Shown here piece after piece: positions 1-48,399 of a stretch of DNA of 63,099 nucleotides. The notes under the pieces are model-generated. The model was not told the origin of the DNA and ran no database searches. It saw only the letters and a program-made list of their open reading frames with translations. Within the stretch, counting starts at the first letter, position 1, and every line of letters starts with the position of its first letter. The stretch comes from Obrimoposthia wandeli. Taxonomy: Eukaryota. The stretch covers positions 186,001 through 249,099 of the forward strand of contig CDROCS010001060.1 of the NCBI GenBank assembly GCA_977020255.1, written 5' to 3'. Made by a program: the position numbers and the translations under genes.

Positions 1-2582
1 TTAGAAAATGAAATTGTTAGAAGAAGTTTTTCTGCATGGACATCACCTGTTGTTTTAGTAAAAAAGAAAGACGGTTCTTTGAGATTTTGCGTAGACTACA
101 GAAAACTAAACGAAGTCACTCACAAAGATACTTATCCACTGCCAAGAATTGATGAAATATTAGACAAACTAAAAAATGCACAAGTATTTACAACTTTAGA
201 TTTACAGAGTGGATACTGTCAAATAGAAATTGAGGAGTCAGATAAATATAAAACAGCTTTCTCAACAGGAGAAGGATTGTATGAATTCAATGTCTTACCA
301 TTTGGATTAACCGGAGCTCCAGCAACATTTCAGAGATGTATGAGCCATATTTTAATGGATGCAGATCACGTAATGGTATATATCGACGACATTCTTATTT
401 TTTCAAAATATTTTGAAGAACATTTAAAAGATTTAGAAAACGTATTCTTAAGATTACAGGTGGCAGAATTAAAACTAAAACCAAAGAAATGTGAATGGAT
501 AAAAGATAAAGTAAATTACTTAGGACATGCTGTATCAGCAAAAGGAATACAACCAGACGAGAGTAATGTAGAAAAGATTAACAATTTTCCAATCCCAAAA
601 ACAGTAAAAAATATACAGGAATTTTTAGGGCTTGCAGGATATTATCGTAGATTTATTAGAAATTTCGCACAAATAGCAATACCATTAAATAAACTTATTA
701 AAAAAGATGAAAATTTTGAATGGGAAAAAGAACAACAAGAATCTTATGAATATTTAAAACAAAAACTAATCGAAAAACCTATACTTAGATATCCTAATTT
801 TAATAACTCATGTTTAGTTATGACTGACGCCAGTGGTTATGCGTTAGGAGCAGTTTTAGGACAACAGGAAAATAACGAAAAAGATCATGTGATAGCATAT
901 GCGAGCAGAGGTCTAAAAAAACATGAAAGAATTACTCAACGATAGAAAGAGAATGCCTAGCTATTTGCTTCGCAATGGAACATTTTAAACATTACTTATT
1001 AGGTCGAAAGGTTTATGTTTACACAGATCAAAGACCATTACAATGGCTTTTAAATCATAAGGATACAACATCTAGATTAATGAGATGGGCATTGATTTTA
1101 CAAAAATATGATATTGAAATAAAATATAGAAAAGGAAAATCTAACGCTAATGCAGATTGTCTATCACGAATAAGAGAAGAAATAAACGAAATAACTGCAA
1201 ACGACATCGAATTAAATCTTTTTACAATAATTCAAGCTAAATATGATGAAAAAGTAATTACTAAACTTCAAAGCAAAAATAATGAAATTCAGCAAATAAC
1301 TAAATACATTAGCACAAACGAAGTACCAACAGATGAAAAATTAAGAAAACATTTAAAAATTCACGAATCACGATACAAATATAGTAATGAAATATTATAT
1401 TATTTAAATGACAAAAATCTATATTCACTAGTTATTCCTAAATAAATTCAGTGTCAATTACTTCTTCAATATCACAATAGAGCGCTAGGAGGACATTTAT
1501 CATCAAAAAAGACACATTCACGATTAAATTTAAAATACTATTGGATTGACATGAAAGAAGAAGTAAAAAATTGGTGTAAAACATGTGAAATATGTCTTAA
1601 ACGAAAAAATACTTTACGTACCACAAAAATACCTTTAAAACCATTACCTTATCCATCAACCCACATGGAAACTGTTGCCATGGATGTAATGGGACCATTA
1701 CCTGAAAAACCCCGAGGAAATCGATATATAATAGTCTTTTCGGATTATTTTACAAGATGGCCAGAGGCTTTTCCAACATAAGACCATCGCGAAAGTTTTA
1801 GTCGATAAAAAATTATTTTTACTTTCGGTGCACCCCGAAAATTCTTAACCGACAAAGGTCCTGAATTTATAAATAATGTATTAGCGTCAATAGCTGAAAT
1901 TTTTCACATAATAAAAAAGATCAATACAACACCATATCAGCCTCAAACTGACGGGTTAGTAGAAAGATTTAATAGAACCCTCGAAGATATGATGGCATCA
2001 TATACAAACAACAACCAAACAGATTGGGATTTACACATACCTCCATGCCTTTTTGCATATAGAACATCAGTACATTCATCCACAGGAGAAACACCTTTTT
2101 ATCTTATGTTCCTCAGAGATCCTCAAATGCCTATTGAATTAACATTACTACAACCTACTACACAATACTTAGAAATACCTGAATATAAAATAGAAATTAG
2201 AGAAAGAATAAAACTAGCATTCGAAAAAGCTAAACTATTTGTAAAAAACATACAAGAAAATTACAAAGAATATTATGATAGAATAACTAAGCCATCAAAT
2301 ATAAAAAGCGGAAGTAAAGTGATGATTCACAATCCACAAATTAATGTAGGATTGTCACACAAATTATCAAAACCATACAAAGGACTATATACAGTCATTA
2401 GTACCAACGGAACCAACATAACAGCTAAACTAGATAATAAACCAAAATCAAAATAAATAAGAGCACATATAAACAGATGTCGAGAAATACCTGAGGAGAA
2501 TACAAAAGTAAAAAGTCACAAATATAACTTAAGATCAACTAACGATAATACAGTTCTACAAATGTTGACAATAAAAAACTAA
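1..2582 (+). pseudogene. pol: pol of element A: RT, RNase H and integrase, broken by a few frameshifts and stops
   Basis: [44 protein letters not shown] (RT). TDASGYALGAVL (RNase H). H-x4-GH...CKTC zinc finger, AMDVMGP / TDKGPEF / GLVERFNRTL (IN D,D,E) and KPYKGLY (GPY/F-like). ORF pieces 79-945, 975-1445, 1551-1781, 1989-2456. Confidence 0.95.
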
Positions 2583-2628
2583 CAAAAACAAAACTATTTT
2601 GAGTCATCAAACCAGAAATACAATAAAA

Positions 2629-3873
2629 ATGTCAATGAAAGAAATTGGTAAAATAATGATGTTATTGATAATATATTTTACATTAAAATATAACCTACTG
2701 AAAGTAAACGCAACAAACATAAATGACAATCAATCAATCATACAACAACAAACAAATAAATACGACTCAACAACTCATCTCATAAAAAATTTTGGATTAA
2801 TAACAATAATACCTGAAATCACATCAATAAAGTTAAAAATTTCTCTTCTTACAAACAAAACAGGAAATGTGCAAATCACACAAACAGATAGAAAACAAAA
2901 TATAATTATTTCAGGAATAAAATCACAAAAATATACAATACCATTTTTAAGAACAGAAACACAATATAAAATAAGAATTAAGTCGAAATTAAAAAATATA
3001 ACACTCTATGAAAGAATTATAGAAACTCACATATACCTAGCATCAATATAAAAAACAACAGCAAAATATATATCCAAACATAAAATAATGATAAAATGGG
3101 AATTTCAACTAAAAATAGATGACTTAGATAAAGCCCTCATTAGAATTAGATATAGAGGACATAATTCTAATTTTTGGAAAGACTCAGAAAAATAATTAGA
3201 AAATACACAAACTAAAACAAATTTAACCATAGAAAATATAAGATATCCAGAGAAAATAATTATGGACAATAGAGAATGCGTAATCACTAATAAACCAATA
3301 ATGTACAGACAATGGAGTCAAAAGTTTGAAAGTTATAAAAATCTAACGAAATTAACAATTTTAGGAAATAAGATATCCAAACTATATCAACTTATAATTT
3401 TTTGTGGTCGTTGGTCAGCAGTAAAAATTAAGAAATATGTCAAAGAAACAACCACAAAACAAATGCTACATACCACAGCATTTACATCAAAGATTTACAG
3501 AGTTACAAATCAAGTTGAAATCACGGAGAAAATAAGAATTAAATTAAAATTAAAAACAACAAAAACAATATCCTATAAATCATTTAATGAAAGTTTTAAA
3601 ATGCACTATGGTAAACAAGAACATTCAAGGAATGAAGATAAAAAAGAACTTATAATAATAGTTATAGTAATCGAAATAATTACATTTATAAATCAATTAT
3701 CATGGAGAATTTTAATTTTGAAACATACAAAAATGATAGAAACAAAACAACGAAAACACTTTTGCGGCTCCCCAGGCCCTTTTAATATTTATATTATTCT
3801 CAAGGATGAGAATTCTTCAGAATTATCTATAAATACTGTAATAGAAAATAGGAAAAGAAATATAACACAATAA
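2629..3873 (+). pseudogene. Accessory ORF of element A: signal peptide, FN3-like repeats, TM helix and cytoplasmic tail; two in-frame premature stops
   Basis: ORFs 2599-3051 and 3262-3873 share one frame. Hydrophobic MMLLIIYFTLKYNLLKVNA; FN3-like YTIPFLRTETQYKIRIKS and I.WEF...IRIRYRGH...W; TM LIIIVIVIEIITFI. The homologue in C (22283-23456, minus) has no stops over this part. Confidence 0.6.
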
Positions 3874-4078
3874 TCAATTTTTTTTAAAATAAAACCATTT
3901 AAGTAACAAATAATGTTAGTACTATTATGTAAATCTAAATTAGTTAGGAAATAGAATAAATATTAATAGAAGTTAGATATATGTGTATTTTAGGGAGGAT
4001 TTAATGAAAATAATGTTAAAATAAAATTACCAGGAAACGTATCCTGAAATTTAATAATGGTTATTTTTAGATATAAAA

Positions 4079-4447
4079 ATGAACAGATTGGCAAAAGTTT
4101 GTAAAAAATGCAAAAAATTAGAGAAAAAGATTCGAGATGTTTCCAGACAGCATGACGACTACTATATAAAGATCACAACTCAAAATGAATCACTGAAACA
4201 ATTAATAAAACAAAGTGTGGAAGAAAAATTGAATAATGATTTGACAATTGACGAACTAGAAGGGAGGTTGACACATAGTTTTCGCAGAATAGACTATTTA
4301 ATACAACAAACTTTAAGTCAACGATCAACTATAGCCTCATTAAGAAGACAAATGATGACCTATAGCGACATGATAAACTTTTATATGACCATAAATCCTA
4401 CTATCCCAACTAATACAACATTTGATGATGGATATGAACATTGGTGA
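4079..4447 (+). CDS. Small coiled-coil accessory protein of element A (122 aa)
   Basis: Intact ATG ORF. RLTHS-x6-L-x12-SLR aligns without gaps to RLEHS-x6-L-x12-SLR in the ORF at the same position in element C (14908-15189). Confidence 0.65.
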   Translation: MNRLAKVCKKCKKLEKKIRDVSRQHDDYYIKITTQNESLKQLIKQSVEEKLNNDLTIDELEGRLTHSFRRIDYLIQQTLSQRSTIASLRRQMMTYSDMINFYMTINPTIPTNTTFDDGYEHW

Positions 4448-4631
4448 ACAAAACTCTGGTTAAACTATAACCATACATCCTTCTTTTGTACAAATTGTCT
4501 AACTTTTTGTTAATAAGTTTATTTTCATGACAAATCCCACATACTGCATGGATAAGACTGATATTTTTATAACTTTAAGACTGAGAAATAATTATATTAT
4601 TTTATTCAACTAACAAATTGATTAAAGCAGA

Positions 4632-5801
4632 ATGAATATCAATCACCTGGATACGACTCCAGACCAGCTCACTCGGTCAGATCAAACAAAAAGCACAGCA
4701 AAAATAGAAAGAGGAAAATCGGAAAATATGCCAGAAAGGTGGTATTTAGCAAAATTCCTTTATCAAAAGATGCGTCAGTTTAACATTGCATACTTTAGAA
4801 ACAACGGAGGAAGAAAAATGTTTTCAAATCAAACATTTCTTCTTAATAAGTTAAAAATTACCACAGAGGAAAGAACAAGCGCACTTATTTTTTCCAATGA
4901 GAAAAGACCAACTAATATGGCTCTCAGCGAAATATTCCCCGATAATAATTGTGAAAAAATAGATATTCACGTGGCACTAGGAGTGGCCCATTTAAAAACC
5001 AAATCAGATAAGACCTTAAACTTTCTGATGATAGGAAATCATACCTACACCTTACAAGCAGCACAATTAGAAAATCAATATAGCATAAAAATAGGAAGAG
5101 GACCACATCTATTATTTATAGAAAAAATAAGAAAAGCAGAAGAACCTCAACAAATAGCCCTTTTTGAATTAAAAAACGCACAGAAACCAGCAATTTTGTT
5201 CCTCGATTGCGAAATGGTGATATCAGTGGATAAACAGCCAGTTTTAGCAAGTGTTTCTATTATAAATTACATATGCAACGTAATTATAGATACACTGTGC
5301 GTAACTAGAGACAGAGTAAGAAATTACGTTACTAGAATAACTGGACTATCAGATAGAAAGTTACAAGGATGTAGAGATGCTGATGAAGTAATTGAGGAAG
5401 TAATAAACATTGTGTATGGTAACATCATCGTAGGTGTGGGACTAACAAACGATTTAAAAGCTTTACGCCTACAGAAATGGATGTTATTCAACATTTTTGA
5501 TTTAGGAATATCTAAAATCATAAAATCAGAACTAAATCACAATCACCCAAATATTGGACTCGCCAACATGGTGCAGAAATACTTAAATGTAGAAACACAA
5601 AAAGGAGTCCACACTAGCATGGAAGATGCAAATCACACCCGAAAAATTTTCATAATGAAGGAGGAAATGTTGAATAGAGATTTTGATTTGACCGAGGTGA
5701 TGAATCCACCATCTAGCGAGAACAACCCCAGTTCATCGTTCTCACATAAGACCAGAAATCCGGAGTCCGGTACACAAAACTCCCCGATTTTGTTGGATTA
5801 A
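4632..5801 (+). CDS. DEDDh 3'-5' exonuclease (REX4/ISG20-like) with an uncharacterised N-terminal domain, encoded inside element A
   Basis: ExoI LFLDCEMV, ExoII GVGLTNDLKAL and ExoIII HTSMEDA are all present. The 389-aa ORF is intact and ends just upstream of the 3' LTR. Confidence 0.88.
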   Translation: MNINHLDTTPDQLTRSDQTKSTAKIERGKSENMPERWYLAKFLYQKMRQFNIAYFRNNGGRKMFSNQTFLLNKLKITTEERTSALIFSNEKRPTNMALSEIFPDNNCEKIDIHVALGVAHLKTKSDKTLNFLMIGNHTYTLQAAQLENQYSIKIGRGPHLLFIEKIRKAEEPQQIALFELKNAQKPAILFLDCEMVISVDKQPVLASVSIINYICNVIIDTLCVTRDRVRNYVTRITGLSDRKLQGCRDADEVIEEVINIVYGNIIVGVGLTNDLKALRLQKWMLFNIFDLGISKIIKSELNHNHPNIGLANMVQKYLNVETQKGVHTSMEDANHTRKIFIMKEEMLNRDFDLTEVMNPPSSENNPSSSFSHKTRNPESGTQNSPILLD

Positions 5802-6204
5802 GGTAGAATTATTATTATTTTTATTCTGTTTTCATTCTTGTCTAAATTTTTAACGATTTTTAACCAGACATGATTGTGATTAGTAAAACAGTGATCAGTT
5901 ATAACATACAAACAACACTAGTTAACAATAGAAACCAGACAAAATAGTTTTACTAATAATTAAGATAAAAATTATAATTCTGAGGACAAAGACTTTTATG
6001 ACCCGGAGGATTGTTGGGAAAATATTATAGCTGTTTATTTTGAAAAAGTAAAAATATAAATATATATATAAAAAATTTAAAAAAATAAAATAAAAAGTAA
6101 ATAAGAATTAATTAACTAAAGAATTAATTAAGAACTTTCCTTAATTAGGGAAAGGTTCTATTTAGAAAATATGTACTTTGGCATTTTAGTCTCAAGAGTG
6201 GTCA

Positions 6205-6256
6205 ATCTCCGACGGGAAAAAAGCCCGTTTCGCCCTTCCGGGCTCATCAGGGAGAT
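6205..6256 (-). ncRNA. Type I hammerhead ribozyme, antisense, in the partial A LTR (6012-6360)
   Basis: Minus strand: AUCUCC CUGAUGA GCCC-GGAA-GGGC GAAAC GGG-CUUUUUU-CCC GUC^GGAGAU. Complete core with stems I, II and III. Confidence 0.92.
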
Positions 6257-7133
6257 GGCTTGTTATTTCTAACTTCGCGGTGGATTCCGCGAAGCCGGAG
6301 ATAACAATAATAAAAAGCCAGGGAAAAGAGGGAAAGATTCCCCTTTCATGTGCCGACGAATAGGTGTGGGACTAACAAACGATTTAAAAGCTTTACGCCT
6401 ACAGAAATGGATGTTATTCAACATTGTTGATTTAGGAATATCTAAAATCATAAAATCAGAACTAAATCACAATCACCCAAATATTGGACTCGCCAACATG
6501 GTGCAGAAATACTTAAATGTAGAAACACAAAAAGGAGTCCACACTAGCATGGAAGATGCAAATCACACCCAAAAAATTTTCATAATGAAGGAGGAAATGT
6601 TGAATAAAGAGTTTGATTTGACCGAGGTGATGAATCCACCATCTAGCGAGAACAACCCAGTTCATCGTTCTCACATAAGACCAGAAATCCGGAGTCCGGT
6701 ACACAAAACTCCCCGATTTTGTTGGATTAAGGTAGTATTATTATTATTTTTATTCTGTTTTCATTCTTGTCTAAATTTTTAACGATTTTTAACCAGACAT
6801 GATTGTGATTAGTAAAACAGTGATCAGTTATAACATGCAAACAACACTAGTTAACAATAGAAACAAGACAAAATAGTTTTACTAATAATTAAGATAAAAA
6901 TTATAATTCTGAGGACAAAGACTTTTATGACCCGGAGGATTGTTGGGAAAATATTATAGCTGTTTATTTTGAAAAAGTAAAAATATAAATATATATATAA
7001 AAAATTAAAAAAAATAAAATAAAAAGTAAATAAGAATTAATTAACTAAAGAATTAATTAAGAACTTTCCTTAATTAGGGAAAAGTTCTATTTAGAAAATA
7101 TGTACTTTGGCATTTTAGTCTCAAGAGTGGTCA

Positions 7134-7185
7134 ATCTCCGACGGGAAAAAAGCCCGTTTCGCCCTGCCGGGCTCATCAGGGAGAT
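7134..7185 (-). ncRNA. Type I hammerhead ribozyme, antisense, in the A 3' LTR
   Basis: Minus strand: AUCUCC CUGAUGA GCCC-GGCA-GGGC GAAAC GGG-CUUUUUU-CCC GUC^GGAGAU. Predicted cut between 7140 and 7139. Confidence 0.93.
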
Positions 7186-7839
7186 GGCTTGTTATCTCTA
7201 ACTTCGCGGTGGATTCCGCGAAGCCAGAGATAACAATAATAAAAAGCCAGGGAAAAGAGGGAAAGATTCCCCTTTCATGTGCCGACGAATATCGTCGACA
7301 TGTGATGTTAGTGTGCGCAAGTGCACAATTCAACACACACACACTCACACAGCAGACATCACTCAACTCACTCACTTACTCACTCAACTTTCATACTCAC
7401 TCACACTCACTGCTCACTCACACACTCACTCGTTTTATCCCTTTATTTCTCCCCATGCACTCTCGTGTGTATGTGTGTTCCCAACTGCTGTTATCTCGAT
7501 ACGGATGTAGATAAATTGATATACATTTTCTCTCTCTGCCCAGATCCGCTGCCATCGGTGTATGTGTGCAGCAGTATTTCTTCTTGCAATTTCTGATTTG
7601 TCTAATCGTTTACCAGTGGAATTGAGGTTGTAGTGCAACTGATTGACTTGTTTTCTATAGTTTGAAGTGGAGCTTTAATTTTTTAAGATTCACATTCGAA
7701 CAAGATAGTCTAATTGGATTAAAAAACAGAAAAAGCTCTGGAAATTGCAACATCACTGTCAGCAGTTTGTTTGGATATTTAAGCTGCACACTGCTTACTA
7801 AAAGGCCAGTGGATAAAATTTGATACAAATATTTTTTGA

Positions 7840-8097
7840 TTAAACAACATTGATTCTAAACAATATTGCTCCTGTATTATTGAAGAATTTTTAGATTAAA
7901 CAACATTGATCCTGTATTATTGAAGAATTTATAAACCAACAACATTGATCCTGTATTATTGAAGAATTTATAAACCAACAACATTGATCCTGTATTATTG
8001 AAGAATTTTTAGATAACACAACATTGATCCTGTATTATTGAAGAATTTTTAGATAACACAACATTGATCCTGTATTATTGAAGAATTTTTAGAAACA
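7840..8097 (+). repeat. Minisatellite of about 39-40 bp (caacattgatcctgtattattgaagaattt...) near the 3' end of the A LTR
   Basis: About 6 units here and about 10 units at 33876-34321. Confidence 0.9.
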
Positions 8098-10119
8098 AAG
8101 TTTTCAGATAATACAATATCATTTGTAATTAGTATTTTGGTATTTTGATATCCCAATTATAATACTTGTACTGATTATCGGAAAGACGGTCACCGATGCA
8201 AAGTCATGCAGAATAAATAAATGTCCAATTTATTTAGTCTAAGCCTGGTCAGATTACTGTTTTAATGGTTTAAGACAATAAGCTTAAATGCATTAATAAT
8301 CAGCCCTAGACCACACCTCACTAGTTTCGAATATTCAAGCCAATAGTGTTCACAATTCTGAACACAGCATAAATCACCAAACATAAATGAAGAAGTCAAT
8401 TCAGTAAAACCTTCATATCAATGAAATCAGATAAGAAATTAAGACCACTAAATACTGTAATTGCCAAAGTCACTCTGTAGGCCTCCAATTGAGAAACCTA
8501 AAGATATTTTTAAGAAAATCCCCAACAAATAAATTCTATGAAACGTAAAATATGGACCTAATAAATACTTGATAAATTCCATAAAATATATTTTACTTGG
8601 TTCTATACACTGCAAGAAATATAGAACGGCTTAATTCATTTTGTGCTAAAGGATGTAAACTCTATTATAAGATAATGTATAGTGAAAACGTTTACTCATA
8701 TATTATTCATTGAAATCGATTGCAATATAACAATAAATTCTTCAAATGACAACAAGTACGTGAACATATAATAATAACTTAAAATATGACGACGTCAATA
8801 TCGAATTTGAACAAAGTTTAATTGGCACAGTGCTAATTTCAATTTTTAAAAGTTTTACATTCATAAAAAGTTTTTTTTTTAATTTTAAATCCAAAAATAT
8901 CATCTGCAATATAACTTATTTTAATGCAATAAATTACAAATGAATGTATTCTTGTGATAAAATTTATAATATATAAATATTAAATCCCACAAATTATTTA
9001 TATGCAATTGTTTTAATCTTCTTCTTATAAACTAAATATTTAAAATTAATTAAATATATTTAAGACAATTGTACGATTTAGTCTAATAAATAACAATAAG
9101 GCACAATTGAGTTTAAATTATAAAATCAAATTTGTGCTATAAAATATATGATTTCAATTGTAAACTATCGTGTTATATTCAAAACAATTAAATTAATTTT
9201 TTTGATATTAATTAAATGTTTCTTTTAAAAGATTTTTTTAATATTTCCAATTCACAATATTAAAATTATTAAGATCGTCTTCATAGTCTTTCAAAGTGTT
9301 TTTTATTTAAAAAAAATAACTTTGTTATATAGAATTTTGTGCCTTACAAAATTTAAGTTTTGTACCAATGCTTTACATATTCATATTTTTGTGCTATATA
9401 TTGTAATCTACTTTGGTCAAAATAATCTATTGAACTTTCATGTCATAATTTAATTTCAAATCAGAAAAAAAAGATTTGCATACTGAATAATTCTTGAGTA
9501 TTAAACAGGTCAATAATATTTATTAATCATTTAGTAAATAAGAAAACAAATCATACAGTTCGACTATTAAATATTTCCTAAATTTAACATATTTACTATC
9601 ACACTTCATGAAAAACTTGCAAACAATATTCAATTAGATTTCATTATCAATGATAAATATGCCTGATTCTTCGATTCAATGAAATTTCCGAAATAATAAA
9701 TTCACTTGAGTGCATTTAAAACATTTTATAAAACATCAGGTTTTCTTATTATTCGCACTACAAACTTATTTCTTTTACTGAATCGATAATCTGTATTGGC
9801 TAAACATTATTAAAAAGTTTATTTTTATTTCTTATCATTCTTAACTTTCAGTAACTCGAAATATTTTATAAACCAATAAAATATCTCAATGCCCAAGACT
9901 ACAAAAAAAATTATATTCACATAAAATTATATTTTGAACAATGTAATTCCGTCACTAATGTATCTTCAATTAGGGTATATGTTAATTACTGACTAATTAT
10001 TTGAACTGGTTTTAAACTAATATTTAAATGGACAATTTAAACTATATTTGTTAATCTATTTTTTTCGATTTATACAGAATATTTTACTATATATTTATAC
10101 AATATATTTTTCTTTTAAT

Positions 10120-11112
10120 ATGAATAATATTTGGAAATATTTAAAAGACCACAATTTAGAAATTGATGTATCGTATGTATCTCCACTATTAAAGTGCTCA
10201 ATGTGTTCCTCAATCCTGAGGCAGCCCATGGGGGCTGTTTGTGGATGCGTGTTCTGTGACGATTGTATCCACAAATATCTCGGGGAAGACTTGAAGCCAT
10301 GCCCGGGTTGTATCATGGATAACATCACAACAGAAATAAGTTACGGCCGCGATATTGTGCAATGTAGGAAGTCCACGAGGGAAATAAACAAGCTTGCTGT
10401 CACTTGCCCACACGATGGATGCGAGGAGAAATGCGAGTTGCTGCAGCTGATGGATCACATTGTATCTTGCCCTGTGTCGAAGTCCGGCTGCATTTTCAGC
10501 AGCATCGGATGTATGAGTGCGCAGTTTAATTCGCTGGAGCTGAACAAGCATCTCGATGAAGGAAGAATGGCGCATTATCGGATTATTGTCGAGACTCTGT
10601 GTCTGCTCAAGAACGGTTTCGAGTCACTGCAGGCGGAGCGAGGAGACGAGTCTGTCATCAGAAATGAGACGGATAAGCTGAAAGAAGACAACACAGAGTT
10701 GAGAGTTGCGTGTGAAGCGAGAGATAACGAATCCAAGGCGGCGATTGATGCGATTGTGGCGGAGGTGGCGGCTCTGAGAACGGAGAATGTTGAGAAGAAG
10801 AAGAAATTAGAGCTGAGAGAGGCAGAAATGAAGAAGGATAAAGAAGAAAGCTGGAGAGAAATTGAACAGTTGCAGAAGAAAGTTGAGAGATTGAGAGAGG
10901 ATAATGGGAAGATGAGTCAAACAATCAAAGAGAACAAAGATAATATCGATGGTGTGCGGAGGGAAATGAAGGAAGATATAAAGAGGGTTACTGAATCAAA
11001 TTCTGAGGATAATACGAAATGGCAGACGGAGATTGACGAGAAGAAATCGGACTTAGAGAAAATGAGAAAGGAAATTGGCGAATTAAGAGCGACTCTGGCG
11101 ACATCTCGGTGA
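10120..11112 (+). CDS. TRAF: TRAF-like protein copy 1: RING, TRAF zinc fingers and coiled coil; MATH domain deleted
   Basis: CSMC...CGCVFCDDC...CPGC RING; CPHDGC...HIVSCP and CIFSSIGC...H zinc fingers; long heptad region. ATG at 10120 (the track's 10048 start is TTG). The ORF ends at a deletion junction relative to copy 2. Confidence 0.8.
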   Translation: MNNIWKYLKDHNLEIDVSYVSPLLKCSMCSSILRQPMGAVCGCVFCDDCIHKYLGEDLKPCPGCIMDNITTEISYGRDIVQCRKSTREINKLAVTCPHDGCEEKCELLQLMDHIVSCPVSKSGCIFSSIGCMSAQFNSLELNKHLDEGRMAHYRIIVETLCLLKNGFESLQAERGDESVIRNETDKLKEDNTELRVACEARDNESKAAIDAIVAEVAALRTENVEKKKKLELREAEMKKDKEESWREIEQLQKKVERLREDNGKMSQTIKENKDNIDGVRREMKEDIKRVTESNSEDNTKWQTEIDEKKSDLEKMRKEIGELRATLATSR

Positions 11113-13556: not shown

Positions 13557-14528
13557 CTATGGAGGAAAATGTTTCGGGTCCATTGTGTGTACGAGGCTAG
13601 AGTGGGTATCCTTTTGTATTTCCTTATTGAAATACCACGAGACCATTCGAGCGAGTCCAGCTTGTTCTCTACGATTGATCTCTAATCGAATAGTATGTGT
13701 TGCTCCTAGATCCACCGTCTGCGAAAAATCGTTTTTCTGTAGTTCTAAAACCTTGAGGTAATTGGTTATTCCCGTTCCTACAAAAATGTTGTCTTTTAGC
13801 AAAGACTGAACGCGTTGTAACACTTCAACAGAATCAGGTTGGTTTCTTAACTTACGTTCGTTGAGGCCTTTTATTCTTGTCATATAATTCCTGATTCTGT
13901 CTCTGCTATTGCATTTTGTATCCAAAACGATTTGTCCACTTTTGTTCATTATAGTAATGCTGGCTAGGGTGGGTTGTTTGTTCATTTTTACTACCATTTC
14001 ACAATCGACAAAAAATATTTGAGGATTGTTGTGATATTAAAATGGCAGACTTGAACGGGACTAGGTCGCACAATTTGTTCTATGAATAATATGTTATGTC
14101 CACCCGACAAACGAATCATCAAATCGGGAGTTATTTAATGTAAGAGTGGTTTTGTAGGAGAATGCTTGCTTTTCTTGTGTTTTAAAAATCCACAGCCTTT
14201 TGCTACGTGAATCTCAATGTCCGTGCAAGTAGGTAAAAATTTCATCAACTCAAACAGTCTGTTCTGTTGGCTTTTTTCTAGTTTTGTTGAGAATTATGCT
14301 CTGTCTAGGGGTGTCTCTTAATTTGATGCTATTTGGAAGCTGGGTCTGATTGTCAAAAATCTTTATTCCGTAATGGTTATGGAAATACCTTGTTCCAAAC
14401 TACCTTATTTTTCCATAAAGGAACTTAGCCATTTTTGGACGTTGTTCTGCTAACTAGACTGACTTCTCTCTCTTACTCTGCGGCACAACCTGCCAGTTCA
14501 AATAAGGATTTGTACTTGTGGGTTCCAT
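13557..14528 (-). pseudogene. DEDDh exonuclease of element C, degraded
   Basis: FFVDCEMVVKMNKQPTLASITI. The upstream region translates to AKFLYGKIR*FGTRYFHNHYGIKIFDNQT, homologous to A's AKFLYQKMRQFNIAYFRNNGGRKMFSNQT. Stops, frameshifts and altered ExoII/III acids are present. Confidence 0.8.
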
Positions 14529-17807: not shown

Positions 17808-18954
17808 AGATTAAACATAATTTTGTTTCCTGAAACATAGTCGGGTCCTGTTCTCTAATTTTCTTTTATAATTTGATTTGTGTTGATCATTTTAATCGTA
17901 AAGGTTATAGAAAAATAATTTATTGGTTTTCAGAGTTCTGTTCACATAAAGGCTAAACACTGGCTGTTGTCGGATAGAGTTTTGAACCCTGACAAATATA
18001 TTAAAAAAGTAATCAACAAACGAAGAACAACTCAAATACAAAATATTTTGAGAAAATTTTAACATTTTGCTTTGAACTGGTTTACCAGTAAAGATTCGTT
18101 TTTTGAGAACTATAAATTGGAGTGGATTTATCTATTAGAGGCGTAAAAGTAAAATAAAAAACTAAAAAGATAATAAAAGTTAAAATAATCATATAAATAT
18201 ATGTTTGTATAAAAAATAAAATTGATCAAAAAATTTAAAATTTTGTCGCAAATTGTCTTGTTTCCCAAGTTACGTCGAGTGCTATCATATAAAGACTTTA
18301 TACTGGTTGGCGGTGGAAGGTCTCAAAGTGATAAGGGACAGAGATTATTGAGATAAATTTTTGAGTCTTGTTATTGTACTAAAAAATTAAAAAACAAAAT
18401 AAAATAAAACTTCGGAAAGATAAATTTTCTCCAGAGATTTTCAGAGAGCGTGTTTTTAATATTGATAAGAGAGTTTGATTTTGAGATTGACTAAATAACT
18501 TTTACGAATTTCACCGAAATATTTTTAGTTTCAGTACGCAGTACGCATTTTTCATTTTTCGCAATATTTGATTTTGAAACTCTAAATAAATTACTAATAA
18601 CACAAACCCAAAGATCTATCACAAAAATAGACACACAAAATAAGAAAATAAAAACGTAGCGCTAGCCTTCACTGGAGAAGAATTCAAACAAGATTAGTTA
18701 GGACAGACTCCAGTGAAAAAACGATTCAAAGACCCAAATCACAAATCAGTTTTACAACAAATAACGATTTACTTACACAGACTTCCCCACTCTCAGAACA
18801 TCTGGACCTAACATTAACCTCAGATACAGAGAGTTTACCTTCACCACAAACATCTGACTCGGATAGTTCGTCAGAGATAACGGCATCAGTAGCCGTACCA
18901 GAACCACCTATTGTACAAATAAACAACGAACAAATAATCGATCAACCTCAAATA

Positions 18955-20273
18955 ATGGCTGAACATAAATTAAATGTTCCTTTAGACGCTTTCAATGGCG
19001 ATAAATCTTCACTACCCGAATTTTTAAATAGATTTGATTCATTTGCTCAGGCATTTGAATGGACTAATGTAGAGAAACTTAGGGTTTTTCCGGCGTATTT
19101 AAAGGGCACTGCCTTAACAATTTATAGAGGATTAAATAATGAACAGAAAGACACATGGGACCATTTAGTTCAGAATTTTCAAAATATGATTTTAGGAGCA
19201 CAGTCTGAACAAAATTACCTTAACCAATTTAGGCAACGTGAACAACATTTGGAGAACCCACAAATATTTTTGCAGTTGAATTACGAAGATTAGCCTTAAA
19301 ATCATTTCCCGGAATTGAGGAAGTCTTAAGAGAACGTTTGCTCCTACATCAATTTCTATATGGGCTAAACAGTAAAATAAAAAATCACCCAGCACTACTA
19401 GAAGTAGAAAATTTTCAACAAGCTGTAAATAAGGCTCAACTTGTAGAAACAAGATTAAACATGTTACAACAATCTGAAGTTTCAGCATTAACCTTTGAAA
19501 AAATACAAAGACCAACAACACCACCAAATTTCAATCAAACTCAAAACTATAACCCAAATACACAATCTAATTACCAAAGCCAACAACAATATACACCACC
19601 GACAAATAACTTTTATAGAAATCAAACAAACAGAAACTATACAGACTCACAAATTACACAAAGATCTTTCCAAAAATGTACAAATTGTGGACTGCAAAAT
19701 CACACAATAGAGAATTGTTATAAAATAACCAACAACAAATTTTGTAGATTTTGTAAAAAAGACAATCATACTATTGAAACTTGCCGAAAATTGTTATACA
19801 GACAAGGTAATAATATAAGACCACAAAATAATAACTTTAACAATCCTAATAATAATTTCAAAAATACAAATAGTAATTTTAGAAGCCCATATAATAATTT
19901 CAATAATCAAAATAATCAAGCTAAATATTTTAATACTAATACAAAATTTTGTAAAATTTGTAATATGAAAAATCACAATACTGCTGAATGTAGCAAACTA
20001 AATACAATGATGAACCAATTTGGTAACACAACAATAAAACAACAACAACCACAACCACAGAGTCAAAAAACAGTACAGTTTAACAATCAAATTCAACAAT
20101 ATGCTTCCAGAAACCCAATACATACTATTGAAAACACTGATATAACTCAGGAAACAGAAGAAGTTGCATTGATGAGATTAAGGCAACAAGAAATAGATAA
20201 TCGCTACAAAGAAACACATCAGCAATACCAAAACAATGAACAAAACACAAATAGTACCAACTCTCAATCCTAA
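18955..20273 (+). pseudogene. gag: gag of element B copy 1 (frameshift near 19250)
   Basis: DAFNGDKSSLPEFLNRFDSFAQAFEW...FPAYLKGTALTIY capsid-like N-terminus and three C-x2-C-x4-H-x4-C knuckles (CTNCGLQNHTIENC, CRFCKKDNHTIETC, CKICNMKNHNTAEC). Confidence 0.9.
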
Positions 20274-20487
20274 TTCGGAGAAATATTTAGAAATGGTTGT
20301 CTAACATTAGAAAAAAGAACACAAATAAGTACAAAAATAAATCAAACCACTCAAACACAAGATACAAAATCGAAAAAATAAAAATAAACGAAAAACACCA
20401 AAAAATAGTAAAAAGTCAACTCTTAAAAATACATATAATTTTAACAAAATCATCCAGAATTTATGGAAAATAATTCAAATAATATTT

Positions 20488-22282
20488 ATGATATGTATTA
20501 TTACAAATATAATAAAACCAGTTAATGCCTTGGAAGCGTATGATTGCTCAAAATATAGTATTCAAAATAAATATTCCTTAATGGATTTACAACAATGTGC
20601 TGATGCCGACCCAAACGAAGTAAAAATCAAAACCACCAAGTTATTCCATGTATACCAGGAAACAGATTTCATAAATACAGAAGTTTACGAGTGTAGGGTA
20701 CACGTAGAAACATTCATAACATATTGCGGACAACACAGCCATAATTCAATTGTCAAACCTGCACTAGGAAAAATACCAATAATTGTCGATGCACTAAATT
20801 GTAAGGACGCTTTTGCAACAGGAGAACTAAGAATAGATAGAGAAATTAAAGTACGAGCAGTAAAAAATAAAATTATACAACAAATGATTACAGTAGTAGG
20901 AACAATAAAATCTGACGGTGCATGTACAACAGGCACATACGTTGTGATGGGAGTCAAACAAAGTGGTTTAGTAGTTATAAAAAACTTTGAAGTAGAACTA
21001 AGAACGTTCAAGGCAACATTTGACCCATCTACAAATAATATGGTAACTATGCCATTTTGCGAAGCAAATATAAGTCATTGCAATACAGGATCCTCAATTT
21101 TATATTATAAGGTAAAAACAGACCAATGTAAATTAATACTCCTAAAATCTGAAATTTTTCAAATAATTCAAGGTCAAAGATTTAAAGATGACCCGGAACT
21201 TGATCAAAGAGTGCCAAAAGATATACATAAAAAATATAGGACAAGAAAAATTCAAAAAACATCAACCCCAACTATTTTAATGTCAACAGAACAAGGTTCT
21301 GGAATGCGATTTATTAAAAAGAAAGAGGAATCCCGATATGGACACTCTATTTATACAACTAATTATAAAGGAATATATTTAAGTAAAGAAAAAATATATA
21401 ATGCAAAAACGACACCAACAAAGTTTGACATAAAAAATTACGATTATTTTAATAATAAATTAGATTATTTTTATCACAAAGGATTAATGACAATAGAAGC
21501 AATTTATACAGAAACGATAATGAATGACTGTAAATTAAACCAAGAAATTTTGAAAACAAAATTGGCAATTATTGCTACAAATCCAGAATTAATAACACCA
21601 TTATTACCACTAGCTGATGGTACTTTTGGAAGAGTAATGGGAGAAGTGCTATATACTTATCAATGTAAAAAAGTAATAGTTAATATAAGAAATCATAATA
21701 AATGCACTAAAGAATTACCAATTTCATACAAAAATCATTCATTATTCGTAGAACCAATCACCAAAATAATACTTTTAATACATACAGTATAAAGGAAATG
21801 AATTGTTCAAACATAATGGCACCTCATTATCAAATCTCAAAGGATATTTGAATATCACTCCCAAGAAGAGACATAGTTGCTCAACCATTAAAATTACAAT
21901 TAACTGACCTCAATAACGACATAGAAATAAAATCAGACAATGAACTAAATACAAAAGGTATATACATACAAGAAGACATAGACAAATTAAGAAAATACAT
22001 TTTATTTCCTCAAATTAGATCACGAATTTTAACACAAATAATTGAAAGATCAGTACCAAACGGAATTGGCCGTCCTGATTACGATTTATTACTTTCTCCA
22101 AATCATTTTATAAAAGCTACACAAAATACAATGTCAAAAATATGGGGAAAAGTTTTAATTTTTGGTCAAGCATTTTCTGGACTTGTGGGAATATATGCAT
22201 TGCTGATATGTTTTAAGATCCTTTTGAGTCAAATTTTATCTATATATTATATTTATAAAGTTGGTGGATTGACATGGAAACT
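20488..22282 (+). pseudogene. env: Chuvirus (Monjiviricetes)/gB-type class III fusion glycoprotein, env-like, B copy 1
   Basis: Signal peptide ...ICIITNIIKPVNA|LEAYDC; YECRVHVETFITYCGQHSH; YFNNKLDY...DCKL; GEVLYTYQC; KGIY..EDIDKLRKYILFP; C-terminal FGQAFSGLVGIY TM region. This pattern is recognised from chuviral G proteins. One frameshift near 21780 and one stop. Confidence 0.85.
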
Positions 22283-24150
22283 TTGTTGTGACGGTTGTAG
22301 CATGTGGTATTTGTTTTATGGTTGTTTCTTTGATATATTTCCTAATTGTAATTACTGACCATTGGCCACAAAAAATCGTAGGTTGATATAATTTGGATAT
22401 TTTATTTCCAAAAATCCTTAAGTTTGTTAGATTTCTACAAGTCTCAAATTGTTGTCCCCATTGTCTATACATTATTGGTTTGTTAGTATTTACACATTCT
22501 CTATAATCCATAATTATTTTTTCTGGATATCTTATATTTTTTATAGTTATATTTGTTCTGATTTGTGATTTTTCTAATTGTTTTTCTGCGTCTTTCCAAA
22601 AATGAGCATTATGTCCTCTATATCTAATTCTAATGAGGGCTTTATCTAAGTTATCTATTTTAAGTTGAAATTCCCAATTTATCATGATTTGATGTTTTGA
22701 TATATATTTTGCTGTCGTTTTTAATATTGAAGCTAAGTATAAGTGAGTTTCTATAATTCTTTCATAGAGTGTTATATTTTTTAATTTCGACTTAATTCTT
22801 ATTTTATATTGTGTTTCTGTTCTTAAAAATGGTATTGTATATTTTTGTGATTTTATTCCTGAAATAATTATATTTTGTTTTCTATCTGTTTGTGTGATTT
22901 GCACATTTCCTGTTTTGTTTGTAAGAAGAGAAATTTTTAACTTTATTGATGTGATTTCAGGTATTATTGTTATTAATCCAAAATTTTTTATGAGATGAGT
23001 TGTTGAGTCGTATTTATTTGTTTGTTGTTGTATGATTGATTGATTGTCATTTATGTTTGTTGCGTTTACTTTCAGTAGGTTATATTTTATTGTAAAATAT
23101 ATTACCAATAACATCATTATTTTACATATTTCTTTTATTGACATTTTTATTGTATTTCTAGTTTGATGACTCAAAATAGTGTTGTTTTGTTTTTGTGAGT
23201 TTTTTATAGTTAACATTTGTAGAACAGTATTATTGCTAGTTGATCTTAAGTTATATTTGTGACTTTTTACTTTTGTATTTTCTTCAGGTGTTTCTCGACA
23301 TCTGTTTATATGTGTTCTTATTTCTTTTGATTGTGGTTCATTGTCGAGTTTAGCTGTTATGTTAGTTCTGTTGGTACTAATGACTGTATATGGTCCTTTG
23401 TATGGTTTTGATAATTTGTGTGACAACTCTACATTAATTTGTGGATTGTGAATCATTACTTTACTTCGCTTTTTATATTTGATGGCTTAGTTCTTCTATT
23501 ATAATATTCTTTGTAATTTTCTTGTATATTTTTGACAAATAATTTAGCTTTTTCGAAAGCTAGTTTTATTATTTCTGTAATTTATATTTTATATTCAGGT
23601 TTTTCTAGGTACTGTGTAGTAGGTTGTAGTAATGTTAGGTCAATAGGCATTTGAGGATCTCTGAATAACATAAGGTAAAAATGTGTTTCTCCTGTAGATG
23701 CATGTACTGATGTTTTATATGCAAAAAGGCATGGAGGTATATGTAAATCCAATCTGTTTGGTTGTTGTTTGTGTATGATGCCATCATATCTTCGAGGGTT
23801 CTATTAAATCTTTCTACTAATCCGTCGGTTTGAGGGTGATATGGTGTTGTATTGATCTTTTTTATGTGATAAATTTCAGCTATTGACGCTAATACATTAT
23901 TTATAAATTCAGGATTTTTTTCGGTTAATAATTTTCGGGATGCACCGAAAGTAAAAAAAAAATTCGACTAAAACCTCCGCAATGGTTTCAGCCTTATGAT
24001 CATGTGTTGGAAAAGCCTCTGGCCATCTTGTAAAATAATCAGAGAAAACTATTATATATCGATTTCCTCGGGGTGTTTCAGGTAATGGCCCCATTACATC
24101 CATGACAACAGTTTCCATTTTGGCTGATGGATACGGTATTGGTTTTAAAA
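22283..24150 (-). mobile_element. Element C copy 1, 5'-side fragment: integrase core and C-terminus running into the FN3 ORF
   Basis: ORF 22236-23456 reads KPYKGPYTVI...HKYNLRS and continues without a stop into the signal peptide and FN3 repeats. ORF 23909-24265 contains VMDVMGP. There is no 5' LTR; the fragment abuts a kinesin exon at about 24150. Confidence 0.88.
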
Positions 24151-27100
24151 GTGGGCCTAGACGAACTCGAGGAGGAGGAATACGATGACGGTGATCTCGA
24201 CGAGAATGACGATCTCGCCCTTGTCCGATCTGCCAATGTAAGTGGGATCCAAAGAGAGATAACATTACTTTGCTTGGCCGTATTGCTTCTTTCCAGATAG
24301 TTTAGTTTTGAACACTAAAAAAATGGGTCAAACAATTAATTACATTTATTAGTAAATTAGAGTAAACAGCAAAATTTATGAAAACATTTAAATATCCTTT
24401 ACAAATATAATCTGATAATATGTGATCATTTGTTCAACAATATTATTTTAAGGGGATTCTTCGCCTATTATGACCAATTTCGATTTTTCGATGTACCAAA
24501 TATTATTTGATACATGTGGTTTCTTAAAACTAATGATTCTTAAATTTACATGGAATATTTCGCAGTCACCGTTTCATCATGACTATGTTGCAATATATAA
24601 AATAAATTAAGATAACATACAACATATATTAAAATACTTTTAAACACAAAATCTTTTACTTAAAACCCATATTAGTCAATTTAGTGAATTTAGTCCAATT
24701 TACTGTACTCAAATCTCTTACAATTTTGTGAATTTGTCTGTAAAAATTGTCAGTATCGGCGGGTCGAAAAAACTCTTGATTTTAAAATATTTAGCGTTTA
24801 TAATGTACTACTTTTATATTTAAGTATTTAAATTTATGCATTTCTAGAAAAATACTGTTGACAAATGCTTCTCAGCACTGATTCTAAATGAAAAAAGTAT
24901 CAACCGCAATATTATGTTTTAAGTTTTGTAAATTTATTTATTTATCAATGTTTATATTTTCTATTACATATCTAATTGATAAAACAGTGGTAAATAAACA
25001 ATAATGTACATAAACTTATGCCCAAAATTAAATTCTAACACTTCTCATTTTTCTTGTTCCATTAATTGAATAAAAGATAATTCCATCATACAACGTTTGG
25101 TTCTGATAGACTTGAATGCGGTGACTGGGTGTATGTGTGATTGTGGTCCACACTGAGCAACTCAGTGACCGCGTAACTCTGTATCCATTGCAACAAATGC
25201 AAACATACATTGCTCCTTTGTTGACTTGAGCTGATAACTCTGCTCTCGCTTGTAAGACAATGATGTACTCTGTTTTTCCGTAGCGAGTTTCTGTACTGTG
25301 GAGACGAGTGCTTGGAGATACTTGCTTGGTAACCATCACAATAGCCTGGCTACTCGGCAATTTTATTATACAGGAATACGCATCTCCACCTGACTCCTTT
25401 ACTGTTATTGATTTTCTTTTCTAGGGTTAAACATCTCTTAATCGTTTTCATTACAGACTTAATTATTAAAAAATATTGTCTTGTTGCTTTATCAAAGCAT
25501 CTCTCTTGTGCCAAATATCACTTATTTATTAGATTTTAAAATATTGCTTTTCCCAGAAATATTTATTCCACCTTTTGATAACTAATGTTTTGGAAATATA
25601 ATCCGTTTATTAGTGTTGCGGAAATTGGATTCTTTATAGCAATTGAGCGTTTTCCTGAAATTTGAAGTGTCTTCTGTGGTATACAGGGGATATTAGTAGC
25701 TGCTCTATTTTCCCAGACTAGGTGAACATGTACGTTGGGCAGCAACTGTCGACAAACATGATCAGTAGTGGCTAAACTGCACTTGTTAGTTGAGGTGACT
25801 TGTTCAGTCGTATTCTTGTCATGTAGACAGCCAATTTCAACTTGCATAATAGAAGGGGGTATCTATGACTCATTGGGGAAAGATTTTCTGATGGAGTTTC
25901 CTCCCCCTATTTAGGCGGAATTTATCGACGACGAGATGTTCAGCTTCCAGGAACTCGTGAACAAGATCGAGTCTCTTGAGGACAATGTCTGTGATAAGCA
26001 TAAAGATCTCGTGGACGTGAGTAATTTTTGATTTGGTCTCAGTTTTAATTCGCATATTTACTCATTTGTATTATATTAAAAAATTAATTAGGTGTATTGC
26101 CTTATAAGAATAATAACTAAAATATATTTTTAAATTAAGCACTCAACTCTTGTAGCGTCTGGCGTTTGAACTGCTGAACTAAATGTTCATCGAATTCATT
26201 TTCATTTTTGATATACTTCTTTCCAATAGATATTTTTGGCATGGGAGTCTTATTATTGTGTCAGGGAATATTTGTATGTGGTCATTTCAGTAAGGGGAAA
26301 ATCTATTGCAGAGGTGTAGTACACTATAAAAGCTGTCATTTCAATGTATGCCAAATATCTAAACTACTATTGCCAAGCATCGATTTGAAGGTGTATTTCA
26401 CGATGATAATCGATATGCGAAAGGAATGCCGAATAAAGGGGAAGTTGAGCGATTATTGCAAACGAAAATCATTACGACATGAGAAATGTTAATTGACGAC
26501 CACACTTCATGCCGAATAACTCTGAATGGCATGTATGCTAAACTTTAATGCTAAATCTCCCATAGGCCTTGACAATATACAAATATACGAACTAAAAACC
26601 GCTACTATGACAATTTGGGGGTTTTATTAACATTCTATTTTATTCTACCAATATCTAATTATTATTAGTTTTTAATTGATTCCGCAATCCTATTCAGAAT
26701 CTGACAACTCAGTTGAAGAAACACACGAGCCTTTTCAAGATGACCAAGCAGCCGGATTATCCTCTGGACGGTAAGATCTTCTGCATCTCAAATAACAAAC
26801 AATAACTTCGTTTTGTACATTTAGAGTACGCCAATAAGTTGGAAGATCTTCTTGACGATCAGCTCAAAGGGCTCACAGATTTCAAAAGTAAGCATCTGTT
26901 TTCGTTTGTGAGAGTTAAATTGAAATATAAACAAACCCGTTTTCTCTACTTGTATGGTACAGTATGCTGGTGGTCATATCTTTTCCAACTTTTCAGGTAT
27001 TTAGATTAATTAAACCTTTTATTTATAAAATAAGTTGTTTACATTATCACACACAATTGAGAAATTAAAATAGTTGAAACAGTCTAGCCCATTTGACAGC

Positions 27101-41300: not shown

Positions 41301-43819
41301 ATCCTATGGGGGTAAACAAAGTTAGATCTCTGACGTTTTAAAAACAAAAATAAAAATAATGTCCCGTTTAGTATATAGCTGTCCAACGTGACTTCCACAA
41401 AAATAAATTACTCGAGTCTGTTAATGTAAAGATAAAATATAAAATTTTGATTTTACACTTTTCATATCCACAAGCAATAAGACATTTAATGAATGATGCA
41501 TAGTAAAATATTTTACTACTCTAAATGCTGTCCTCATAATCAGTTGAGCAAAGGTCCATGACCTCAGGAAGGCTAGTATTGGCAATGCAGGGGAGAGAGA
41601 CCGTCAGTCCACATTCTTCTATAAGTTCTTGCTCTCTATGGAGGAAAATGTTTCGGGTCCATTGTGTGTATGAGGCTAGAGTGGGTATCCTTTTGTATTT
41701 CCTTATTGAAATACCACGAGACCATTCGAGCGAGTCCAGCTTGTTCTCTACGATTGATCTCTAATCGAATAGTATGTGTTGCTCCTAGATCCACCGTCTG
41801 CGAAAAATCGTTTTTCTGTAGTCCTAAAACCTTGAGGTTGTTGGTTATTCCCGTTCCTACGAAAATGTTGTCTTTTAGCAAGGACTGAACGCGTTGTAAC
41901 ACTTCGACAGAATCAGGTTGGTTTCTTAACTTACGTTCGTTGAGGCCTTTTATTCTTGTCACATAATTCCTGATTCTGTCTCTGCTATTGCATTTTGTAT
42001 CCAAAACGATTTGTCCAATTTTGTTCATTATAGTAATGCTGGCTAGGGTGGGTTGTTTGTTCATTTTTACTACCATTTCACAATCGACAAAAAATATTTG
42101 AGGATTGTTGTGATATTCAAATGGCAGACTTGAACGGGACTAGGTCGCACAATTTGTTCTATGAATAATATGTTATGTCCACCCGACAAACAAATCATCA
42201 AATCGGGAGTTATTTGATGTCTCATCAACCGGTAAGAGTGGTTTTGTAGGAGAATGCTTGCTTTTCTTGTGTTTTAAAAATCCACAGCCTTTTGCTACGT
42301 GAATCTCAATGTCCGTGCAAGTAGATAAAAATTTCATCAACTCAAACAGTCTGTTCTGTTGGCTTTTTGCTATTTTTGTTGAGAATTATGCTCTGTCTAG
42401 GGGTGTCTCTTAATTTGATGCTATTTGAAAGCTGGGTCTGATTGTCAAAAATCTTTATTCCGTAATGGTTATGGAAATACCTTGTTCCAAACTACCTTAT
42501 TTTTCCATAAAGGAACTTAGCCATTTTTGGACGTTATTCTGCTAACTAGACTGACTTCTCTCTCTTACCCTGCGGCACAACCTGCCAGTTTAAATAAGGA
42601 TTTGTACTTGTGGGTTCCATCTGTAGGGTATACAGATATAGTAAAAAAAAATTGATTTTACATGCAAATATAAAATTTGTCAATGTTTATAAAATGAAAT
42701 GTTCGTGTCAAATTTTTTTTTCTCTTTTTGTTTATCAAAAGTCTGTAAATCATTTTAGTTTTTTGATGTAACAAGCTCAATCAAACAGGTATATAAATAA
42801 GATATAATTTTTTCATTCTTTACTACATATTCTTGTTACATCTATTATCAATATCAATATATACATATCTATATAAATATATTCGTTTTTATTTATTCCT
42901 AATTTTTATTATGACACTTTAACTAAAGTTAATGAATATTAATACCCATTCATAAACATATTTCCTTTCCAAATCATGCCATAAGCTCAAACTAATTCTC
43001 AATTTTCTTTTAATTTATATTTTAATTTACTCACTGTGGATTTTACTAATTTTCACACCCGAAATCATCACTTTCTCCCGGTTGAAATCCCATTAAACGA
43101 TTAATTACTGATCTCAATGATACAAGAGAGTTTAACGCTTCTCTGAGTCGTCGTACTAATAATTCCTGATTTGTTTGGCTATGTTCTAATCTTCCATTTG
43201 CAACGTCAAAAGCATTATTCATTCGCTCACATTCCATTTCCTTGTCTTTCAAATGCGATCGCAGATTTATATTTTCTTACAATAATTTATTTTCCCATTT
43301 CTTCTGTCTCTTATATCTTCTTTTATTATTTTGTACTATTTTTTAATTTCTCATTTCTAAAATGTTAATAAGTTTTGAGTTCATTTTTACTATTTTCAAT
43401 TTAAACTAAACACATACGCACTTTTCTTCATTAACATTATAATTACTTTATTTTATGATTAGCTTTTATTTTAGTATGTCAATTCGTGTTTTTACTTGTA
43501 TGAAAATTTTATAAAGATTTTTCTCTTTTCTTCTTATTATTCTCAATTATTGTATTTATTGATATGTTAGATGAGTTTGAAGAGCTAGGTATGATAGATG
43601 TTATAAATGGCCCAGGAGGTTTCTACAATTTGTCCGATAATGTTTTTTGAAAATTGTGTTATTTTTTACTTTAATGACTTTCCATGTTATTTTTATGATT
43701 AATGTAAAGATTTCAATTATTATGATTGTTACAAAAATTTTCTTGTTATTTATATTTTTTGAGTATTTTTGTTTATTAAAGTGTATTTTTAGACTTTCAT
43801 TAAATGATTTATATGGTAT

Positions 43820-48160: not shown

Positions 48161-48399
48161 TCGGAGAAATATCTAAAAAGGGTTGTCTAACATTAGAAAA
48201 GAACACAAATAAGTACAAAAAATAAATCAAACCACTCAAACACAAGATACAAAATCGAAAATAAAAATAAACGAAAAACACCAAAAAAATAGTAAGAAGT
48301 CAACTCTTAAAAATACATATAATTTTAACAAAATCATCCAGAATTTATGGAAAAATAATTCAAATAATATTATGATATGTATTATTACAAATATAATAA

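Follow-up and report, generated by a model that had tools for sequence, protein, structure and literature searches.

The window considered here is a 63,099-nucleotide stretch of Obrimoposthia wandeli DNA, taken as a whole. The nuclease gene under study is the last gene of a Ty3/gypsy element of about 15 kb (14.5-15.3 kb in this genome), whose general layout is LTR-gag-env-pro-pol-ectodomain-coiled ORF-nuclease-LTR. In detail, gag is followed by a Monjiviricetes-type fusion glycoprotein that runs into the protease, and then by the reverse transcriptase (RT), the RNase H, the integrase, a membrane-anchored-looking extension, a small ORF and the nuclease. This copy spans from a 5' LTR starting at G000:C1060:178859 to a 3' LTR inside the window, and its features are the following.

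G000:C1060:181277-185619, upstream of the window: gag, env and protease
1..2574 (+): pol (RT, RNase H, integrase), disrupted by stops and a frameshift
2575..3873 (+): region after the integrase, with an ectodomain between two hydrophobic segments, broken here
4058..4447 (+): small ORF with weak coiled-coil-type Pfam matches only; the metagenome contig L066 has a similar short ORF at the same place
4610..4631 (+): candidate splice acceptor for a subgenomic mRNA, with a branch-point-like CTAAC and a CAG directly before the ATG
4632..5801 (+): accessory ORF of 389 aa, made of a leader, a double-stranded beta-helix (DSBH)/cupin-fold domain, a DEDDh exonuclease and a disordered tail
5431..7291 (+): tandem duplication of about 930 bp that takes in the final third of the nuclease gene as well as the beginning of the 3' LTR
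6941..8164 (+): 3' LTR, with 31 differences over 1184 aligned positions to the 5' LTR (G000:C1060:178859-180038)
8165..8168 (+): target-site duplication CTTG, 4 bp, the same 4 bases preceding the 5' LTR

The element shows the LTRs, target-site duplication, primer-binding-site-like stretch (found in this copy) and PR-RT-RH-INT order of Ty3/gypsy GAG-ENV-POL errantiviruses. Its gB-type, chuvirus-like env lies between gag and pol: PF24664 matches ahead of the protease, and env, PR and RT share one frame in L044 and L066. In this copy, pol is interrupted by a frameshift near 930 and by stops at 1443, 1779, 1806 and 2454, and the post-integrase region by stops at 3049 and 3193, while the nuclease is a single uninterrupted frame of 389 codons at 4632-5801(+). 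An earlier sequence-only reading had described these breaks beside an intact nuclease ORF, which is indeed what we find, but it had called the post-integrase region an "FN3 ORF". None of the window pieces has an fn3 match, and one of four related pieces reaches E 0.17, under the cut-off. Neither is the region clearly a separate ORF, as both L066 and other copies have a pol frame that extends into it. This extension (2575-3873, and 22239-23486 on the minus strand) is membrane-protein-like, with no Pfam match over cut-off; it diverges fast (52-65% between families) and looks like a second surface protein besides env.

The rest of the window is a nest of these elements. More gag-env-protease(-pol) pieces of a related family lie at 18652-22358 and 46526-53713, and pol fragments in inverted orientation occupy 22278-24272 and 57653-59594. 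TRAF-like genes (RING, zf-TRAF, coiled coil and, by eye, a MATH-like piece) are found at 10021-11112, 36244-37179 and 38623-39111; they are repeated with a segmental duplication of 26-28 kb, and again at G000:C1060:156226-159076. The assembly also holds many gene-dense bacterial-type contigs (e.g. C253, C506, C6885, C1802 and C5288 of G000), which are contaminants or associated bacteria.

The gene is not particular to this copy. This genome holds 106 or more near-identical copies, along with three diverged families. The protein search scored 106 of 5618 candidates, all of them full length, with 93-100% identity and 78 without a stop, in a set that was ranked by score and is hence biased to intact copies. 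Family C is 41% identical to the ORF (150 scored of 4077 candidates), and its LTR pairs are 99.6-99.8% alike in the two copies examined. Two further families are 72-78% and 41% identical, and their nuclease gene again follows the same small ORF. Three family-C homologues lie in the window itself.

13593..14444 (-): family-C homologue, broken
41672..42566 (-): second family-C homologue, broken, in the duplicated segment
54930..55552 (+): third family-C homologue, more decayed

Outside this genome, three metagenome loci were found among 51 pattern matches, two of which are too short to show context. The third, L066, has the same layout, one frame of 2978 aa or more being followed by a short ORF and this by a nuclease homologue; its RT is 70% and its nuclease domain 30% identical to those of this element. 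The L066 frame (L066:2-8938) holds a ubiquitin-like-looking stretch (by eye), a chuvirus-like env, two tandem proteases, RT, RNase H and integrase, and ends in a second unit of hydrophobic segment, ectodomain and TM. About 20 diverged homologues of the protein were collected; their element context is known from the families of this genome and from L066, the other members being unplaced proteins. The nuclease is thus retroelement-encoded, as had been proposed, and a host gene confined to one copy is excluded, since other element copies carry the ORF.

The protein itself can be divided into three parts ahead of its disordered tail.

4632..4727 (+): leader, residues 1-32, unconstrained (pN/pS) and modelled with low confidence (pLDDT), the second Met being residue 33
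4728..5141 (+): N-terminal helix and double-stranded beta-helix (cupin-like and possibly AlkB-like fold), residues 33-170, basic, with a conserved Tyr, P-N-x-L-K, I-H-V-x-x-G and Glu
5187..5669 (+): REX4/ISG20-type DEDDh domain, residues 186-346, with D192, E194, D274, H327 and D332, and a residue other than Arg at the ISG20 Arg53 site

The sequence-only reading had taken the first ~180 residues as a real domain and not a leader. This holds for residues ~33-170, while residues 1-32 behave as a leader: pN/pS is 1.5 over codons 1-33 in 30 copies, and pLDDT is below 50 for residues 1-35 of the predicted structure. Its motifs AKFLY...NQT and DI.IHVA.G are conserved in family C as claimed, whereas LFIE.I is kept there only loosely. 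The domain, real but described as unknown, now has a fold, since the model shows the double-stranded beta-helix of the cupin superfamily. The metal sites typical of such folds are missing: there is no HxH or HxD...H set in residues 33-170; the cupin His/His/Glu/His motifs are absent, with only one His (20/22) and one Glu (17/22) conserved and this His aligning with a hydrophobic cupin position; and neither the HxD...H iron triad nor the 2OG-binding Arg of AlkB and 2OG-Fe(II) enzymes occurs in the 22-row domain alignment. The modelled likeness of fold says nothing on the function of this domain.

The assignment of the second domain was borne out. Residues 190-340 match Pfam RNase_T over cut-off, the best solved relative is ISG20 (1wlj, E 5.5e-10), and the DnaQ fold is nearest to that of ISG20, a likeness that stays at the family level (22-26% identity). 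ORF residues D192, E194, D274, H327 and D332 align with D11, E13, D94, H149 and D154 of ISG20, so that the catalytic set is complete, as the earlier reading had it. The ExoI D-x-E, ExoII D and ExoIII H-x4-D motifs of the DEDDh group are all present; this ExoIII is not that of the DEDDy (RNase D-like) group, and the best hits are ISG20/REX4. By its residues, the protein is therefore catalytically complete and a predicted 3'-5' exonuclease.

The earlier reading also saw in it a captured host nuclease and called for a phylogeny, for which the control was an exon of the host's own gene.

G000:C325:31583-31864 (-): exon of the host's own REX4-like gene (L097)

A quick tree built from 163 domains places the 22 domain-bearing rows together with the 4 N-truncated ones in a single group (SH-aLRT 95). 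In a more careful tree, which is unrooted, lacks ISG20 and PAN2 sequences and has few named "cellular" rows, the 26 element-type rows split from 40 others (39 chosen domains and the host REX4 exon) with support 100/100. The element enzymes do not group with the host REX4, and the trees present them as what looks like one ancient lineage, not one recently captured from this host. Within it, D-E-(D/E)-H-D is kept in 25 of the 25 members that cover the site, six of which have DEED, and all five catalytic positions persist among sequences that are only 21-32% identical. The surroundings of the active site are different. ISG20 contacts the ribose 2'-OH through Arg53; an Arg stands at this site in 121 of the 137 cellular-type rows and in 0 of the 26 from elements, and the REX4 "GH" His, found in 137/137 cellular-type rows, remains in 9/26 element rows. 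Judging from these alignments, substrate recognition has probably changed along the element lineage. Since PAN2 is an RNase that also lacks this Arg, its loss is no proof of a switch to DNA; it could mean a lower preference for RNA rather than a new RNA target.

The state of the gene across copies is informative on how it is maintained. Among 30 copies ranked by DNA, the nuclease ORF is intact in 12 and broken in 18, and omega is 0.89 for changes private to one copy against 0.35 for common ones. The private changes of this copy (9 non-synonymous, 1 synonymous) do not differ from neutrality (p=0.70), and one of them alters a residue that 19 of 22 homologues share. With 1.3-2% divergence since insertion, where the lower divergence value comes from the LTRs of this copy, an ORF would escape stops with a probability of 0.3-0.46. 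Stops per kb are no lower in the nuclease (0.53) than in the upstream ORFs (0.39 and 0.11). From the private and common omega values, the neutral private changes and the stop density, the gene is under selection while elements replicate and decays after insertion; positive selection on it is not shown. The intactness of the ORF in this copy, earlier read as a signal of retention, is thus chance. Three young family-C copies (L044, L047 and L050) have several pol frameshifts yet identical nuclease proteins, with near-identical LTRs in the two compared. This suggests that some breaks are assembly errors, and assembly indel errors may inflate the apparent decay. We are highly confident of the identity and architecture: a REX4/ISG20-derived DEDDh domain behind a DSBH domain without a metal site, encoded by the 3'-most accessory gene of an old env-bearing (gag-env-pol) Ty3/gypsy lineage and subject to purifying selection as long as a lineage replicates.

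Between families A and C, RT is 95% and integrase 94% identical, and the nuclease only 43%, with saturated synonymous sites (pS 0.76, versus 0.20-0.52 in pol). This pattern fits what may be a swappable, host-facing accessory gene and would speak against an RT proofreader, but with saturated synonymous sites it may reflect module exchange and not an arms race. Integrase is also less diverged than RT at silent sites between families, which suggests recombination.

The nuclease gene lies outside the Pol frame in families A and C and in L066, and an acceptor-like signal, the background rate of which is 9-13%, is found at its ATG. In family A, CTAAC is present in 30/30 copies and YAG in 29/30; in family C, a pyrimidine tract and a CAG abutting the ATG are found in 16/16; and L066 has the signal too. 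There is no acceptor at the ATG in two of the five lineages (L064 and L065). The nuclease would then be made from its own spliced mRNA, and would therefore act in the host cell rather than within Gag-Pol.

Our best guess for its most likely job, tentative and built on analogy, is that of a separately expressed counter-defence or RNA-clearing nuclease. The 3'-5' exonuclease, with a cupin-fold domain that would bind or position its substrate or a partner, would trim or clear RNA 3' ends that serve as input for silencing or RNA sensing by the host, the candidate targets being small guide RNAs and cleaved or double-stranded element RNA. The model for this is the arenavirus ExoN, which is thought to act so on innate signalling. 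Against such a job, the available part of the rotifer study of Rodriguez et al. (PMC5408684) reports no clear link of DEDDy ORF3s with copy number. A distinctly less probable role is that of a replication helper, trimming the 3' ends of element RNA, of the tRNA primer or of cDNA overhangs, or clearing RNA debris of reverse transcription. The same role was proposed for the rotifer DEDDy ORF3s (PMC5408684), the catalytic set is kept throughout the clade, and the loss of the ribose-2'-OH-reading Arg would fit a DNA or mixed substrate; however, the gene is not in the Pol frame, it diverges much faster than RT or integrase, and the related gag-env-pol elements are described without it in what is available of a survey that did not seek such a gene (PMC13524379). 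The thousands of candidate copies and the antiviral ISG20 as nearest solved structure, a protein that inhibits many viruses (PMC9157404), might instead indicate a restriction of competitors (other elements, RNA viruses), from which the element would profit and, as a by-product, the host. We consider this unlikely: neutral decay after insertion means that the host is not keeping copies, and the likeness to ISG20 is only at the family level. An anti-piRNA nuclease is about as unlikely. piRNA 3' ends are 2'-O-methylated; the Arg loss in 26/26 rows would admit such ends, the dead cupin/AlkB-fold domain would read a modified base or the PIWI complex, and the element would strip the guides that silence it.

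A weak or inactive nuclease, being mainly an RNA-binding protein, would account for the loss of the "GH" His and of the Arg53 site and for the six DEED members, but five catalytic positions kept at such low identity are hard to explain without catalysis, and we find it improbable. Still more doubtful is the proofreading-like role suggested earlier, in which a partner of the reverse transcriptase would enable a genome of 15-17 kb, as for the nidovirus ExoN. The size of the element and the nidovirus precedent (PMC7968707) are in its favour; but nidoviruses conserve their ExoN and their polymerase to the same degree (PMC7968707), while here a separate ORF outside the Pol frame has diverged between families far more than RT has, and no exonuclease is described for the 30-kb Burro elements (PMC6431247). 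That the present copy has been domesticated as a host gene, its ORF maintained open while the element decays and pol has at least five breaks, is largely refuted and deserves almost no credence, given the share of intact copies, the chance of escaping a stop, and private changes that look neutral and hit a conserved position.

A separately expressed counter-defence or RNA-clearing nuclease would bear on the question of whether retrotransposons of animals encode enzymes that counter RNA silencing by the host, for which the VANC proteins of plants are the known anti-silencing case (PMC12859917). The protein is a compact, well-modelled candidate, catalytically complete by its residues and kept by an old element lineage, and its one specific active-site change makes a direct biochemical test possible.

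Retroelement nucleases of another type are known. In bdelloid rotifers, the Juno/Vesta LTR and Athena/Terminon elements carry a DEDDy exonuclease as ORF3 (PMC5408684), and DEDD exonuclease domains after pol have been called well known (PMC6338049). As in rotifers, the element described here has, downstream of pol, a separate ORF for a DnaQ-like, predicted 3'-5' exonuclease, with intact catalytic residues and DEED variants, and the element enzymes cluster together, apart from host ones. The rotifer ORF3 is however RNase D-like and replaces env, whereas here the enzyme is REX4/ISG20-like, is joined to a DSBH domain and coexists with an env; the words DEDDh, REX, ISG20 and cupin do not occur in the accessible portions of PMC5408684. 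GAG-ENV-POL errantiviruses with gB-type env are likewise described from Platyhelminthes, Nematoda and Bryozoa, e.g. Smed_errantivirus_1-6 (PMC13524379). They have the same gene order and the same chuvirus-like (Monjiviricetes) class of fusogen, and the env here has many short motifs and its cysteine spacing in common with the Platyhelminthes (planarian) C1a rows of that study, by eye and unscored. This likeness would make a free-living flatworm the probable host. A downstream nuclease is not described in the parts available, where "exonuclease" occurs 0 times in the text and 7 supplement files; the LTR search of that survey went only to 3 kb past pol, and no PBS was found for these elements. 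The element studied here shows that gag-env-pol elements carry a 3' accessory block, one that is absent from the survey's description as available. Burro, the giant planarian gypsy element, also has env in frame between gag and protease and many accessory domains; it is ~30 kb long, twice the size of this element, and its listed cargo is BIR, BCL2, MATH, ankyrin and dUTPase, with no exonuclease (PMC6431247, as available). A DEDDh enzyme or cupin-fold fusion is not in what the consulted portions of these four papers describe, nor was a DEDDh-cupin fusion found in a literature search outside of which lay Repbase, most subscription papers and bioRxiv supplements.

In comparison with cellular REX4, ISG20 and ISG20L2, the element enzymes form a separate clade that has lost the Arg53 site throughout and mostly the "GH" His, and they have a folded DSBH domain where REX4 has a low-complexity N-terminus. 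By analogy only, DEDDh enzymes are used against innate signalling by the arenavirus nucleoprotein (PMC7968707) and on Argonaute-bound small RNAs by the plant SDN1 (PMC6123492); no zinc finger is seen here, the partner domains are different, and SDN1 retains the Arg. Thus, DEDDy nucleases of retroelements and gag-env-pol elements are already known, and the element-borne DSBH-DEDDh pairing appears to be new with respect to the literature covered. If the protein does only replication housekeeping, it would still be, after the rotifer elements, a second case of LTR elements having acquired a DnaQ-type nuclease, and an independent one, and it would add this new pairing of domains.
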